Shown one piece after another: positions 20,839 to 24,475 of a DNA stretch of 49,578 nucleotides. Source of the DNA: Candidatus Shapirobacteria bacterium. GTDB lineage: Bacteria > Patescibacteriota > Microgenomatia > UBA12405. The stretch's first letter is position 1. Every line of letters starts with the position of its first letter. The notes under the pieces are model-generated. The model saw nothing but the letters and a program-made list of their open reading frames with translations, made no database searches and was not told the DNA's origin. The stretch spans positions 133,146 to 182,723 of the forward strand of contig JBAYIT010000003.1 in the NCBI GenBank assembly GCA_041665485.1. The letters are read 5' to 3'. Position numbers and translations under genes: made by a program.

Positions 20839-21512
20839 TCTCTGTCGTCATACCCTGTTTTAATGAAGAAGAACGGATATTACCGGTTTTGAATTCTCTT
20901 AAACAATCAAAATCGTGTGGTGAAATTATCGTCGTCGACGATGGCTCCAATAAGACTACCAAAGATATTTTAATCGCCGTCAAAGGCATTAAACTAATTA
21001 CTCATCCTAAAAATCTTGGCAAAGCCCAAGCCTTAAAAACCGGCATTCTTCAAGCTAAATACGATGTCATCGTTTTTATCGATGCTGATTTAGTCAATCT
21101 TACCCCAGATCATATCAATGCCCTGATAGAACCAGTTATAAATTCCGATTGTGATCTAACCTTAAGTGATCGGCCCGAAGAATCGTTTTACACTGTTTTC
21201 TCTGGCTTTAATATTGCCTATACTGGCGAGCGTTGTGTTAGACGCCAACTCTTGCTTCAACATTTAGACATTTTCGATAATCCTGGTTACTTAATCGAAT
21301 CCTCTATGAACCGGATATTTTTTAAAAATTATCGGGTTAAAAAAGTACCATTTCCCGAAGTCGGCCAAATATCAAAAAGCAAAAAATATGGCATTGTCAA
21401 AGGTCTTTACTTGGACGCTAAAATGTTTTTTCAAATCATCCAATTTTCAGGTCTTAAAGAGCTTATTTTTCAACTATCTTTTGCCAAAAGGCTACCCGGT
21501 TATCCCCAATAG
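20826..21512 (+). CDS. glycosyltransferase family 2
   Basis: VSVVIPCFNEEERI, IIVVDDGSNKTT and FIDADL (DxD) motifs. Confidence 0.85.
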   Translation: MDKLVSVVIPCFNEEERILPVLNSLKQSKSCGEIIVVDDGSNKTTKDILIAVKGIKLITHPKNLGKAQALKTGILQAKYDVIVFIDADLVNLTPDHINALIEPVINSDCDLTLSDRPEESFYTVFSGFNIAYTGERCVRRQLLLQHLDIFDNPGYLIESSMNRIFFKNYRVKKVPFPEVGQISKSKKYGIVKGLYLDAKMFFQIIQFSGLKELIFQLSFAKRLPGYPQ

Positions 21513-23048
21513 CCCCTTCATCTTCTTCAATGCTTCGGCGTTTTTTCCGATTTCAAAATGCTTCCGAGCCGGCTCTAGTTTTTCAATTAACCAGTCAGAT
21601 AAGGCGTTTTTTAAATCCAGTGGAAATAATTTTTCGCTCTGGTAATCAGCCGTTAAGTCGGCCATGGTGTTGTAAACCACCTTACCTCCAAATCTTTCCG
21701 GCCGGTCAACCACAAAATTGCCAGTCTTCTCGCCCCAAAATATCAATGTCTCCACCCAATTTAGTAGTGGGTTAAACTCAACTTCTTTCGGTGGGCCGTA
21801 AGCTTTTTTAATTTTGTTCCTAATTTCGTCTGGAGTGTCGTGAATAAACACCGCGCTGTTCGGCTTCGACTTACTCATCTTCAATGATTCAGCGTCATTG
21901 TCGCCTGCCTGCGGGCCAGAAAGACCAGCAATTAAATTCTGGTGAATCGCCACCGGTGTTTGGTGTTTCCCAGGAATCTTTTTAATTGCCTCTCTGGCAA
22001 TCACATGAGCCTTTCTTTGGTCCATGCCAGCATGTGCCAAATTAATATCTAGGGTCACTATATCCGCCACCTGTAGTGGTGGGTAGAAGAGGGTGGCCAT
22101 ATTGACATCCGTGCCCTGCTTTTTACCCATAATCGAAATCGATCTTAAGTCACGAGCTAAAGTTACTTGTTTGCCCACTTCCATAAATGTTTGCCAATGA
22201 TCCGGCCGGCTTTCATACAAATCTTTTCCCGAAATAAATTCGACCTGATCACCCTCAACTCCGAAGCACTTAAGTGAAGCAATTAGTCCTTCTTTAAAAT
22301 AACTCTCCGATGCCCAGCGAATATCCTCCCACTTTCCGCCTAATTTATTATTCAAAAAAGTATGGAAATCAGCCAAAAATATTCTGCATTTTGCCCCGGC
22401 CTGCAAAAAGTCGGCAATTTTTCCCATCGACAATAATCCCGTTCCCAAATGCACTAACCCCGAAATCTCAAAGCCAATGTAGTGCGACAGGGGGGTGCCA
22501 GACTCTATTAGCGCCCTCAAGTCCTCCTCCGTCAGCACCTCCTGGCAGTTTCTAGTTATCAATCTAATTTTTTCTTCTGTGTCCATGTTCTTTTCTTCTG
22601 CAATTGATACTACCTTGCATTTTAGATGATCTAAAACCACCTCCAGTTTAACATTAATCCCGTGTTTAGTGTCTCCTGCTCCCATACTCCAAATTTTTTG
22701 GCTCATCAGTTTCTTATCCACTAATGTTTTTATCTCCAAAACCAATGGGCAAACTCCGCCCGCTACCAACTCCAGTTTAACCAATTCATCGCCAGTCGCC
22801 ACTCTCCATTTACCAATTAAAGCCGACAACTTTTTATCATCAACTCTGTCGCTCCCACCAACAACTACAGCTGTAAAACCTGCATCGGTTTTCACTACTA
22901 ACGTTTTGATTGCATTTTTTGGATCATAATTTTTCCCCATTGACGTGTCGCTGGTTCTGGCCGAAATGGCCGTATCACCAAACTCCACCACTTCAAAATC
23001 AATCTTCTGCTTTTTTAACCGATCACATATTTCCATAAAATCTTTCAT
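21492..23048 (-). CDS. tyrS: YbaK/ProX-like aminoacyl-tRNA deacylase domain fused to archaeal/eukaryal-type tyrosyl-tRNA synthetase
   Basis: Residues ~1-150: LKKQKIDFEVV..., AIKTLVVK, VAGGVCPL (YbaK/tRNA_edit pattern). Residues ~160-518 align along their length with M. jannaschii-type TyrRS: HYIGFEISGLVHLG, LADFHTFLN, YPPLQVADI, AGMDQRKAHVIARE, KMSKSKP, EIRNKIKKAY, RPERFGG, LFPLDLKNA..LIEKLEPARKHF. Confidence 0.85.
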   Translation of the reverse strand: MKDFMEICDRLKKQKIDFEVVEFGDTAISARTSDTSMGKNYDPKNAIKTLVVKTDAGFTAVVVGGSDRVDDKKLSALIGKWRVATGDELVKLELVAGGVCPLVLEIKTLVDKKLMSQKIWSMGAGDTKHGINVKLEVVLDHLKCKVVSIAEEKNMDTEEKIRLITRNCQEVLTEEDLRALIESGTPLSHYIGFEISGLVHLGTGLLSMGKIADFLQAGAKCRIFLADFHTFLNNKLGGKWEDIRWASESYFKEGLIASLKCFGVEGDQVEFISGKDLYESRPDHWQTFMEVGKQVTLARDLRSISIMGKKQGTDVNMATLFYPPLQVADIVTLDINLAHAGMDQRKAHVIAREAIKKIPGKHQTPVAIHQNLIAGLSGPQAGDNDAESLKMSKSKPNSAVFIHDTPDEIRNKIKKAYGPPKEVEFNPLLNWVETLIFWGEKTGNFVVDRPERFGGKVVYNTMADLTADYQSEKLFPLDLKNALSDWLIEKLEPARKHFEIGKNAEALKKMKGLLGITG

Positions 23049-23051
23049 AGT

Positions 23052-23732
23052 TTAGTTTAATAAATTTTTAACTGCCGTGTTTGCCAAGATATCCATGGTG
23101 TCTAAAAATAAAATCTTACGATTGAATTCTTGCCATACCTCGCTCAATAACTGCAGTTCGCTGCACCCCAAAATGCAAGTTTCAATGCCACTATCAATAA
23201 AATTATTTAACACTTTTTCTAACATATTTTTGTCAGATTTGGTTGCCACCTTGCCCTTGGCTAACCTGTCAAGCATTTGGCTAATTTTTATTTGCTTATT
23301 TTTATCAGGAACAGTTAATTCAAATTTATTTGACACAAATAATTTATTCTTAACGGCAAAAGTTGTTGCTAGTAACCCAACCTTTTCTAATTTTATTTGC
23401 TTTTTTGTCTCTTCAATTGCGCTCATAACTGGAATATCAACATTTTTTTGAACCTCATCAATAAAAACATGCACCGAATTACAGGCAATAATTAAAAAAT
23501 CTGCTCCGGCTAATTCCAATCTCTTGGCGGCTTTAGCCATTAGAGTTGGGAAGTTGCCGGAATCATTATCGGTAATTAGTCTGGTTTCGGCCATTAAATT
23601 TATTGGTAAACTGGCCACTAAAATATCCGGCCTGGTTTTTTGGCCAGACGCTACAAATTTATTAATGATTTTGGTAACTAATTGGTTGGTGGCTTCCGGG
23701 CCCATCCCCCCAATTATTCCTAAGGTTTTCAT
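23052..23732 (-). CDS. aspartate/glutamate racemase family protein
   Basis: GIIGGMGPEAT, the two catalytic-Cys motifs IIACNSVH and ILGCSEL, and a size (~226 aa) typical of aspartate racemases. Confidence 0.8.
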   Translation of the reverse strand: MKTLGIIGGMGPEATNQLVTKIINKFVASGQKTRPDILVASLPINLMAETRLITDNDSGNFPTLMAKAAKRLELAGADFLIIACNSVHVFIDEVQKNVDIPVMSAIEETKKQIKLEKVGLLATTFAVKNKLFVSNKFELTVPDKNKQIKISQMLDRLAKGKVATKSDKNMLEKVLNNFIDSGIETCILGCSELQLLSEVWQEFNRKILFLDTMDILANTAVKNLLN

Positions 23733-23735
23733 AAG

Positions 23736-23807
23736 TCCAACGGGCAGGAGTTGAACCTGCTTTAAACGGTTTTACAGACCGTTGCCTAACCGTCCGGCTC
23801 CCGTTGG
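23736..23807 (-). tRNA. tRNA-Tyr (anticodon GUA), class I (short variable arm) with a C1:G72 first pair
   Basis: Hand fold of CCAACGGGAGCCGGACGGTTAGGCAACGGTCTGTAAAACCGTTTAAAGCAGGTTCAACTCCTGCCCGTTGGA. Acceptor CCAACGG/CCGTTGG, D stem GCC/GGC, anticodon stem ACGGT/ACCGT with loop CTGTAAA, 5-nt variable loop TTAAA, T arm GCAGG-TTCAACT-CCTGC, discriminator A. No CCA is encoded. Confidence 0.85.
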
Positions 23808-23847: not shown

Positions 23848-24138
23848 TTATCCGCCATTGTTTTGAAAATCTTTAACTCTGTTAAACGCGTCTCTAGCTA
23901 TCATCCCAAGATCACTTCTAAATCCGTGATCAAAGGTTCCAACTAGTCGGCCTACTGCAAGTTTAGCCATTGCCTCCACCGATCTTCCATCTGGGCAATC
24001 AAGCCATTCGAGTGCAACGCTTTGTCCCACAATAGTCGCAACTCGCATTGCTCTTTGTCGTCGAGTTAAGCCAGTTTGGATCTCCCAATTTGGTAGAGAC
24101 GGATTAATACCGTCAAAACTAATTTCTCTATTTTTCAT
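23848..24138 (-). CDS. hypothetical protein (96 aa), first ORF downstream of the T-box leader
   Basis: Strong SD (AAGGGAGGTGATAAAAAATG). No recognisable motif. Confidence 0.5.
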   Translation of the reverse strand: MKNREISFDGINPSLPNWEIQTGLTRRQRAMRVATIVGQSVALEWLDCPDGRSVEAMAKLAVGRLVGTFDHGFRSDLGMIARDAFNRVKDFQNNGG

Positions 24139-24204: not shown

Positions 24205-24265
24205 ACACCAAAAAGCCCCCACACCAGTCCAAACCATTAATATGGTCGGGACTAGGGTGAGGGCT
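24205..24265 (-). terminator. intrinsic terminator of the T-box leader
   Basis: AGCCCUCACCCUAGUCC (24265..24249) pairs with GGACUGGUGUGGGGGCU (24230..24214): 16 of 17 positions paired, 2 of them G.U. It is followed by UUUUU (24214..24210). Confidence 0.8.
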
Positions 24266-24440
24266 TGACCAGTTTGACTGGTTTTCTCACGGTACCACCT
24301 AGTTTCCCCCGCAGGGGCGGGGCTTATTATCGAGTATTTGCTAAAAGCAGTGTTACCCTATCTCTATTCCGGGAGATCCCGCTCCGATTTTGTCGAAGTG
24401 CTCCGGGGGTGTATTACGTCCCCATCCGCGTTCCAAGTTA
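24205..24440 (-). promoter_or_regulatory. T-box riboswitch leader (transcription attenuation type), probable tyrosine (UAC) specifier
   Basis: T-box consensus AAACUAGGUGGUACCGUGAG at 24305..24286. Antiterminator: A1 ACUAGG/CCUAGU, bulge UGGUACC, A2 GUGAG/CUCAC. A mutually exclusive terminator is present. Stem III is CCCCGC-CCCU-GCGGGG (24322..24306). The first hairpin GGGG-ACGUAAUACA-CCCC presents UAC+A (UAC at 24413..24411). Confidence 0.85.
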
Positions 24441-24445
24441 AAAGT

Positions 24446-24475
24446 ATCATACCACCAAAAAATCTTACTTGTCAA
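24446..24475 (-). promoter_or_regulatory. strong sigma70-type promoter for the T-box operon
   Basis: -35 TTGACA (24475..24470), 18-nt spacer, extended -10 TGgTATGAT (TATGAT 24451..24446). Confidence 0.7.

Follow-up and report, generated by a model that had tools for sequence, protein, structure and literature searches.

Known T-box leaders and the Shapirobacteria locus

T-box riboswitches are a model for RNA–RNA recognition in gene control. The canonical transcriptional members, gathered in Rfam family RF00230 and typified by the Bacillus subtilis tyrS leader with its UAC specifier, run in the order promoter, Stem I with a kink-turn (K-turn)-type base, Stem II, Stem IIA/B pseudoknot, purine linker and Stem III. 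Here we analyse a 49,578-nucleotide (nt) stretch of Candidatus Shapirobacteria DNA (contig JBAYIT010000003.1; hereafter the window), whose minus strand carries, at 24475..24210, a ~230-nt non-coding leader with its promoter in which these parts follow one another in the same order, with a K-turn-like loop at the base of Stem I. Also shared with canonical T-boxes are the T-box sequence, the 7-nt UGGNACC bulge between antiterminator helices A1 and A2, a mutually exclusive terminator, a tyrosine (Tyr) codon that ends in C and precedes a purine, an N of UGGN that matches the tRNA discriminator, and the type of target, an aminoacyl-tRNA synthetase (aaRS) operon with amino-acid-supply genes. Judging from homologous sequences, the leader is very probably a Tyr-specific T-box riboswitch that works by classical antitermination with uncharged tRNA-Tyr. 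The core of this reading, a Tyr T-box attenuator heading an operon for tRNA-Tyr and tyrosyl-tRNA synthetase (TyrRS) in a genome of the candidate phyla radiation (CPR), had been put forward in an earlier note on the window, and comparative evidence supports it.

Unlike canonical members, the leader is missing the distal two-thirds of Stem I (the S-turn specifier loop, the AG bulge and the double T-loop platform) and holds its codon in an apical loop. Its Stem II is cut down to 6 bp capped by a CAAAA loop, without a recognisable S-turn, and an extra hairpin stands between the pseudoknot and the linker. Its host belongs to the CPR, its ligand would be an archaeal-identity class I tRNA-Tyr, and in most relatives a tRNA gene is the first gene to be regulated.

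According to a recent review, a long Stem I bearing an elbow-docking double T-loop motif is a general requirement of transcriptional T-boxes, which depend on this platform to capture tRNA quickly (PMC7583486). Intermediate and "ultrashort" forms of Stem I with an apical codon have been described for translational T-boxes, mostly from Actinobacteria, where the Stem II S-turn acts as a clamp (PMC7583486, PMC11297988). Like the present leader, the ultrashort-Stem-I ileS leaders of Mycobacterium tuberculosis and Nocardia farcinica (Sherwood, Grundy & Henkin 2015, as reviewed in PMC7583486) have a short Stem I hairpin with an apical specifier and no platform for elbow contact, standing in their case on a K-turn and in ours on a K-turn-like loop; their decoding module also consists of Stem I, Stem II and the IIA/B pseudoknot, and insertions in the discriminator (Stem III and the top of A2) are common. 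They differ in regulating translation through a Shine-Dalgarno sequestrator and in having a ~70-nt Stem II domain whose S-turn clamps the codon–anticodon helix, whereas our leader has a terminator and U-tract, no recognisable S-turn, a Tyr rather than an Ile codon, and a host outside the Actinobacteria. The likeness to actinobacterial short-Stem-I T-boxes drawn in the earlier note holds for Stem I and fails for the rest, since those leaders act on translation and an intrinsic terminator is present here. The glyQS-type minimal T-boxes are also a natural case of a reduced middle domain, but they keep the long Stem I platform and do without Stem II and the pseudoknot, the reverse of what is seen here.

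Catalogued T-box hosts are Firmicutes, Actinobacteria, Chloroflexi, Deinococcus-Thermus and a few Proteobacteria (PMC2494555), and the short-Stem-I set in TBDB stems from searches of Actinobacteria together with truncated-Stem-I sequences already caught by the class I (Rfam) model (PMC7778990). Full-text literature searches found no T-box reports for CPR bacteria (Patescibacteria, Microgenomates, Saccharibacteria). The regulated genes themselves have been described as CPR archaeal-identity pairs, in which an archaeal/eukaryal-type TyrRS accompanies a C1-G72 tRNA-Tyr with or without a variable arm (Mukai et al. 2017, PMC5370408). That study covers Microgenomates including Shapirobacteria and does not mention a T-box; the leader and the leader–tRNA–TyrRS operon are additional to its account.

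Anatomy and conservation of the leader

The features of the leader, in the order in which they would be transcribed, are as follows.

24446..24475, minus strand: sigma-70-type promoter, with TTGACA at 24475..24470, an 18-nt spacer and TG-n-TATGAT ending at 24446 (promoter scan)
24400..24429, minus strand: ultrashort Stem I (fold, covariation, RF00230 alignment)
24410..24413, minus strand: specifier UAC (Tyr codon, 24413..24411) and conserved 3' purine A24410 (invariance, anticodon match)
24382..24398, minus strand: Stem II, a 6-bp hairpin with a CAAAA loop (covariation)
24360..24381, minus strand: Stem IIA hairpin CGGG-AUCU-CCCG and IIB pseudoknot, loop AUCU with AGAU at 24363..24360 (covariation)
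24332..24358, minus strand: extra hairpin with a GGGUA...UACUC base, an internal loop and a UGC/GCA tip, containing a second UAC at 24336..24334 (pairing)
24323..24331, minus strand: purine-rich linker GAUAAUAAG, 5' of Stem III (conservation; aligns to the RF00230 A-rich linker)
24322..24307, minus strand: Stem III, GC hairpin CCCCGC-CCCU-GCGGGG, -12.2 kcal/mol
24251..24305, minus strand: T-box sequence and antiterminator (fold, covariation)
24210..24265, minus strand: intrinsic terminator, hairpin 24265..24215 followed by U5 at 24214..24210 (fold)

The leader features that the earlier note had described, from promoter to terminator, are all present on the minus strand where it placed them, except that a second UAC given as about 24343..24341 lies at 24336..24334. 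Its inventory of hairpins was sound as far as it went; Stem II, the IIA/B pseudoknot and the extra hairpin had escaped it.

Related contigs (labelled L001-L035) were used to assess conservation. A genome scan with the TyrRS protein gave 15 loci, mostly labelled Candidatus Shapirobacteria or Patescibacteria (lineage Patescibacteria group / Microgenomates group), of which 3 (L002, L003 and L015) have a clearly homologous leader. A metagenome scan with a 21-nt pattern taken from the leader yielded ten further leaders (L016-L025), and those of L026/L027 and L028 were reached through TyrRS homologue look-ups, independently of the leader sequence. In all, 14 distinct homologous leaders are available from Candidatus Shapirobacteria (Patescibacteria/CPR) contigs. 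A whole-leader MAFFT alignment (A1) misplaced the T-box because Stem III varies in length, and separate alignments of the 5' domain (A2) and the 3' domain (A3) were used in its place. Alignment A2 comprises 12 full-length leaders, and an extended set to which L026 and L028 were added comprises 13 sequences.

Across the 12 leaders of A2, every pair cell of the 5' domain (342/342, 100%) is a standard pair, and 11 of the 29 pairs have changed on both sides. Shuffles reach a covariation score of 0.142, compared with 0.339 for the real alignment (0/500), and register-shifted controls pair at only 27-49%; the picture is the same after L026 and L028 are added. A covariance model (R1) built from this 5' domain scores homologous leaders at 111-146 bits, with no other match at E<=0.01 in the sequence searched. 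The fold of the window leader as a whole also beats all 200 shuffles (z = -3.7). Stems I, II and IIA, the IIA/B pseudoknot and the antiterminator are each backed by compensatory changes, and support for the terminator comes from pairing that is kept despite divergent sequences. The resemblance to a T-box is far beyond chance.

The near-consensus promoter described in the earlier note, with TTGACA, an 18-nt spacer and TG-n-TATGAT, stands: it matches at 11/12 positions, has an extended -10 TG and is the top-scoring site within 3 kb in the promoter scan. A promoter of the form TTGACA-16/18-TAnAnT is found at an equal distance upstream of every complete homologous leader. Between the promoter and Stem I, a single-stranded UUGGAA (window 24431..24436, minus strand) is conserved in all leaders, as CCGGAA in L026, and no conserved pairing partner for it was found across the leaders. 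In the minimum-energy fold of the window, a 5' ACUUGG pairs with CUAGGU of the T-box; this pairing was dropped, as relatives do not conserve it.

Stem I consists of a 2-bp base (G24429:C24400 and C24428:G24401), a K-turn-like GA/GA internal loop and a 5-bp upper helix, capped by an 11-nt apical loop (A-CG-UAAUACA-C) that holds the specifier. Both helices are 100% paired, with double changes in 4/7 pairs (the base occurs as CG or UA, and 3/5 of the top pairs covary). The hairpin reads GGGG-ACGUAAUACA(C)-CCCC, with UAC at 24413..24411 followed by A24410. UAAUACA is invariant in 14/14 leaders, in a loop of the form A-N-N-UAAUACA-C/A, and the choice of the Stem I UAC as specifier in the earlier note is borne out by a comparative alignment that keeps UAC-A invariant at this place. 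In the K-turn region, tandem GA/GA pairs are possible at 24426-24425 and 24403-24402, with a 1-nt bulge only; relatives have a 3-nt bulge with GA (L021, L026, L028) or AA (L002, L019, L020), or a 1-nt bulge with AA.

Stem II is 100% paired with double changes in 5/6 pairs, and its CAAAA loop is conserved. No S-turn (AGUA/GAA) can be recognised in it when the window leader is aligned to RF00230. All cells of Stem IIA and the pseudoknot are paired; the IIA closing pair (61:72) is CG or AU, and the middle pair of the pseudoknot (66:81) occurs as AU, GC and UA, in 4 sequences each. The extra hairpin can be paired in every leader without covariation, and its invariance in L016-L025 is partly owed to the search pattern that found those loci; in L028, found through its protein, the tip is swapped for a different, longer hairpin and the base is kept. 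An AGUA/AAUA element occurs within this hairpin, and the adenines of the Stem II loop, the AGUA/AAUA-bearing hairpin or both may replace the purine string of the S-turn. The linker that follows is conserved in all leaders, with a variant, GAUAAUGAG, in L028.

The 3' domain contains the switch itself. The T-box sequence AAACUAGGUGGUACCGUGAG (consensus AAnnnGGGUGGUACCGCG) occupies exactly 24305..24286, as the earlier note had it, and is near-invariant in all leaders. The antiterminator is made of A1, ACUAGG/CCUAGU (24303..24298 / 24256..24251), a 7-nt bulge, UGGUACC (24297..24291), and A2, GUGAG/CUCAC (24290..24286 / 24261..24257), with an inserted, lineage-specific hairpin (24282..24268) in the A2 loop of the window. 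This arrangement, likewise proposed before, is 97.7% paired in A3, has two covarying pairs (AU/UA and UA/CG) and is the minimum-energy structure in 13/13 leaders tested, at -8 to -16 kcal/mol.

The terminator of the window has 9+7+6 pairs with two 1x1 mismatches and a free energy of -35.8 kcal/mol, followed by U5. It re-uses the 3' strand of the antiterminator, CCCUCACCCUAGU (CCCUC(A/G)CCCU(A/U)GU across the leaders), so the shared strand and U-tract recognised in the earlier note are both found. In 12 relatives the terminator has -25.5 to -34.3 kcal/mol and U5-U8, and the distal stems differ in sequence yet pair; the base helix is 93.5% paired in A3. The terminator is stronger than the antiterminator by 15-24 kcal/mol. 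Covariation of the antiterminator/terminator switch, which the earlier note had named as a check, is seen in the antiterminator (those two pairs), and the terminator shows kept pairing with divergent sequences.

The GC hairpin of Stem III lies directly upstream of the T-box, as had been described, and relatives carry a 43-62-nt branched Stem III instead of this simple hairpin. In almost all relatives the inner Stem III hairpin is followed by U6-U9, and the scan marks it as terminator-like; sites include L003 1414..1440, L016 178..202 and L021 11837..11812 (minus strand), with further cases in L002, L015, L018-L020, L022-L026 and L028, and the window is without it. Stem III hairpins as unrelated as GCACC-GUGA-GGUGC and AUCCCG-CAGUGA-CGGGAU both keep the combination of hairpin and U-run. 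Programmed pausing may occur here, or a first step of attenuation, before the T-box is reached; if it is a pause, it would give time for slow tRNA binding.

The operon and its linked tRNA-Tyr

Downstream of the leader, the window contains the following genes.

23848..24138, minus strand: open reading frame (ORF) of 96 amino acids (aa) with a strong ribosome-binding site (RBS), GGGAGGUGA; first gene after the leader in the window
23807..23735, minus strand: tRNA-Tyr(GUA), 73 nt, class I, C1-G72, A73, no encoded CCA; ~400 nt downstream of the leader
23052..23732, minus strand: Asp/Glu-type racemase gene (PF01177, 1.7e-28)
21492..23048, minus strand: YbaK-like editing domain fused to an archaeal/eukaryal-type class I TyrRS (PF04073 and PF00579)

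The tRNA-Tyr of the window is presumed to be both the ligand of the leader and one of its regulated products. Every tRNA linked to a leader is a tRNA-Tyr with anticodon GUA, complementary to the UAC specifier, and UGGU is complementary to A73 in 10/10 linked tRNA-Tyr genes. The prediction of an A73 discriminator made from the bulge in the earlier note therefore holds for the tRNA ~400 nt downstream and for all 10 linked tRNAs. In 9 distinct leaders the distance from the U-tract to the 5' end of tRNA-Tyr is only 3-11 nt. No tRNA was found in the operons of L015 and L028. An archaeal-type TyrRS lies downstream in 11/11 loci that reach far enough, and the genes between tRNA and TyrRS vary (racemase, M20 peptidase, metallo-beta-lactamase-fold protein and proteins without an assigned function).

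Near-identical leaders precede a class I C1-G72 tRNA-Tyr in eight loci and a class II G1-C72 tRNA-Tyr in L021 and L023. The class II tRNAs (L021 11629..11712 and L023 8743..8826, minus strand) have a long variable arm, G1-C72 and U2-G71; their identity is of the bacterial type, yet the downstream TyrRS is of the same archaeal type as at the C1-G72 class I loci. The T-loop is UGCAA, with G at position 55, in L003, L019, L021, L022 and L023. In the window, L002, L016, L024 and L025 it is UUCAA/UUCGA, the near-universal form. ARAGORN missed the class I tRNA-Tyr of L002, L017 and L018; the Rfam tRNA model recovered those of L002 and L018, and that of L017, a locus near-identical to L002, was recognised by eye.

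The window TyrRS is a single 518-aa ORF with an N-terminal YbaK/ProX-like aminoacyl-tRNA editing domain (PF04073). Its relatives in the protein database are Shapirobacteria tyrosine--tRNA ligases, some with the same fusion (518-523 aa; P0002, P0004, P0011 and P0056), and its C-terminal 364 aa also appear there, unchanged, as an entry of their own (P0001). An editing domain on TyrRS next to a racemase hints at proofreading or salvage of D-Tyr or a Tyr analogue.

Small operon ORFs (72-109 aa, with a strong RBS and no Pfam family, the 96-aa ORF of the window included) precede the tRNA in the window and L025 (3372..3590) and follow it in L016 (416..745) and L024 (269..559); similarity between those of the window and L024 is marginal (E = 0.003). 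Two families of 330-390-aa proteins, both without a Pfam match, are encoded between the T-box-controlled tRNA-Tyr and TyrRS at L003 1726..2895, L002 3871..4965, L021 and L023, where the 334-336-aa ORFs of L021 and L023 stand directly after the tRNA. They are candidates for Tyr-supply or tRNA-related functions.

Proposed mechanism

The proposal starts from what can be read directly at the locus and its relatives, namely the sequence elements with their conservation and covariation, two mutually exclusive folds, the matches of codon to anticodon and of UGGU to A73, and the content of the operon. From these we infer tRNA binding, charge sensing and termination in vivo. RNA polymerase would start ~7 nt past the -10 element and transcribe the ~230-nt leader, whose 5' module (the Stem I UAC-A, the minimal Stem II and the IIA/B pseudoknot) would bind the GUA anticodon of tRNA-Tyr. 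If the tRNA is uncharged, its 3' ACCA would pair with UGGU in the bulge and stabilise the weak antiterminator, and read-through would then enter the operon, with its small ORF, tRNA-Tyr, racemase and editing-domain-TyrRS. A charged tRNA, or none at all, would leave the much stronger terminator free to form, and transcription would end at the U-tract (24214..24210).

The elbow of the tRNA would not be read in this scheme, because the distal part of Stem I is absent. A leader that serves both class I and class II tRNA-Tyr fits a sensor reading only the anticodon and the 3' end. The concern raised in the earlier note, that a platform evolved against bacterial elbows would face an archaeal-like tRNA, is moot, as there is no platform and the same leader fronts tRNAs of both classes.

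In most relatives, tRNA-Tyr would be the first product of read-through, and the ligand and its charging enzyme would be co-induced. No promoter-like site was found between the leader promoter and the tRNA when the relatives' leaders were scanned, and an internal tRNA promoter within the terminator region was neither returned by the scan nor seen by eye as a conserved element. Because the sole promoter-like site on the strand is the leader's own, the tRNA of these relatives would be made only by read-through, and in 9 of them the switch apparently gates the gene of its own ligand. Given the gene order, the ligand would induce its own gene together with TyrRS. This would amount to a positive loop on the tRNA, offset by the co-induced charging, and it hinges on any second tRNA-Tyr gene elsewhere in the genome.

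Departures from the family and alternative readings

Neither the whole window nor any of 9 related loci yields a match to RF00230 at its gathering score of 93 bits. Under permissive settings the model reaches 20.3 bits (E = 0.048) when 1.2 kb is searched and 25.9 bits (E = 4e-4) when the search is confined to 291 nt; the search with this model that the earlier note had proposed as a check thus returns a local match and no hit at curated stringency. The weak alignment is nonetheless full-length, and places the K-turn base, Stem II, IIA, the A-rich linker, Stem III and the T-box/antiterminator, with 75 distal Stem I model positions replaced by 10 nt and the AGUA half of the Stem II S-turn deleted. 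Matches of mir-2329 and other microRNA families to the terminator hairpin scored higher than RF00230 and were set aside as generic long-hairpin matches. By the curated criterion the leader is not a member of RF00230; by its anatomy it is a T-box with large deletions. The "textbook" label given to it in the earlier note does not suit a leader with a score so far below threshold, no distal Stem I platform, a minimal Stem II and an extra hairpin, and "minimal and atypical" should replace it.

Several points weigh against reading the leader as a T-box. Its RF00230 score is far below gathering (25.9 vs 93). The elbow-docking double T-loop platform (long Stem I, AG bulge and distal loop) is absent in all leaders, and this platform and a recognisable Stem II S-turn, both missing, are thought to be important. 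The window leader has a degenerate K-turn, with a 1-nt bulge, as do several relatives, with AA for GA, and the extra hairpin lacks support from covariation. The retrieval of ten leaders with a 21-nt pattern derived from the leader inflates the conservation of that stretch. Finally, an R1 search of the retrieved sequence found no leader at E<=0.01 in L001, L004-L014 or L030-L035. At most of these leaderless loci TyrRS begins 6-90 nt behind a promoter or a divergent gene. Since most other Shapirobacteria TyrRS loci examined are without it, the leader is dispensable in the lineage.

One alternative is a decayed T-box relic that no longer senses tRNA and serves as a leaky constitutive attenuator, or as a 5' leader that RNase P trims from pre-tRNA-Tyr. 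The missing Stem I platform and S-turn, the low Rfam score and the lack of a leader in most relatives would all fit. A relic, however, would not be expected to retain an invariant specifier loop and UGGUACC bulge, or to show, over 14 leaders, compensatory changes that preserve pairing in Stems I, II and IIA, the pseudoknot and the antiterminator, nor would it be expected to match both the anticodon and, through UGGU, A73 of the linked tRNA perfectly. We therefore consider it unlikely.

Still less probable is a translational T-box of the actinobacterial ileS kind, in which the 3' hairpin would be an RBS sequestrator and there would be no terminator. The short Stem I hairpins described so far with the specifier in their apical loop belong to translational T-boxes (PMC7583486, PMC11297988), but in every leader the hairpin is GC-rich and followed by U5-U8, and the RBS of the window lies ~60 nt beyond it. 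In 9 relatives there is nothing to translate, because the next gene is the tRNA, 3-11 nt away.

To the same very low degree, the specifier might be the second UAC (24336..24334, within GCAAAUACUCG) instead of the triplet in the Stem I loop. This UAC is likewise invariant, but its invariance in L016-L025 derives from the search pattern; it forms part of the 3' side of the extra-hairpin stem (GAGUA/UACUC, 100% paired) and comes after the pseudoknot, a position that holds the specifier in no known T-box. The Stem I loop triplet, in turn, is displayed as in short-Stem-I T-boxes, with a 3' purine (PMC7583486).

That RF00230 is not significant at curated thresholds could suggest a chance resemblance, in which the terminator of an upstream 110-aa ORF lies beside an unrelated promoter and hairpins, but this can practically be discounted, because the promoter is upstream of the hairpins and cannot belong with a terminator of that ORF, the entire 230-nt layout recurs, with covariation, in 14 contigs, and the T-box core in 348 kb of sequence is confined to leaders besides two chance matches, one of them confirmed as coding.

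Distribution in the lineage

In those 348 kb of related Shapirobacteria sequence, the core was searched as GGUGGNA(C/U)C, and the coding match, at window 43026, lies within a release-factor gene. No T-box was found upstream of LysRS or of sampled class I aaRS genes in the same sequence. The editing-domain-fusion loci with enough upstream sequence (the window, L022, L026 and L028) all carry the leader. In this small sample, the leader seems to go with the Tyr cassette as an accessory, and does not look like a strategy general to the CPR.

Some leaderless loci share promoter context with a leader. In L005, L007, L010 and L011, which are T-box-less, a promoter embedded in the first part of a divergent gene upstream (…GATAAATTGTTGACAT…TAGTATAAT) drives a near-leaderless TyrRS, and the same embedded promoter drives the T-box leader in L003 (1230..1270). 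This shared promoter suggests that a block of leader, tRNA and cargo has been inserted or lost between the promoter and the TyrRS gene.

Implications

Taken together, these traits may define a new class of T-box, in which a terminator decision is made without elbow contact or S-turn (a minimal hairpin, a pseudoknot and an extra hairpin being used instead), and which gates the gene of its own ligand in a self-sensing cassette of tRNA-Tyr, Tyr-supply genes and TyrRS. It would be the first in the CPR and apparently confined to a laterally acquired Tyr pair. We put this forward tentatively, at a little under an even chance of being right in full.

A conserved short-Stem-I leader with an intrinsic terminator challenges the rule that ties a short Stem I to translational control (PMC7583486). 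Structural and engineering studies would gain a minimal decoding module of ~120 nt. The leader should be of clear interest to specialists on riboswitches and on the CPR, and standard antitermination assays can be applied to it. Curated Rfam thresholds miss T-boxes in CPR genomes, where known regulatory RNA is scarce. Literature searches for T-boxes upstream of tRNA genes found nothing relevant, and the logic of a T-box directly before a tRNA gene, by which a ligand would control its own synthesis along with that of its synthetase, was not found described. Orthogonal-type tRNA/aaRS pairs are workhorses of genetic-code expansion. For the Shapirobacteria that carry the leader, self-gating would bear on the way in which a tRNA/aaRS pair of this type, acquired horizontally, stays balanced.

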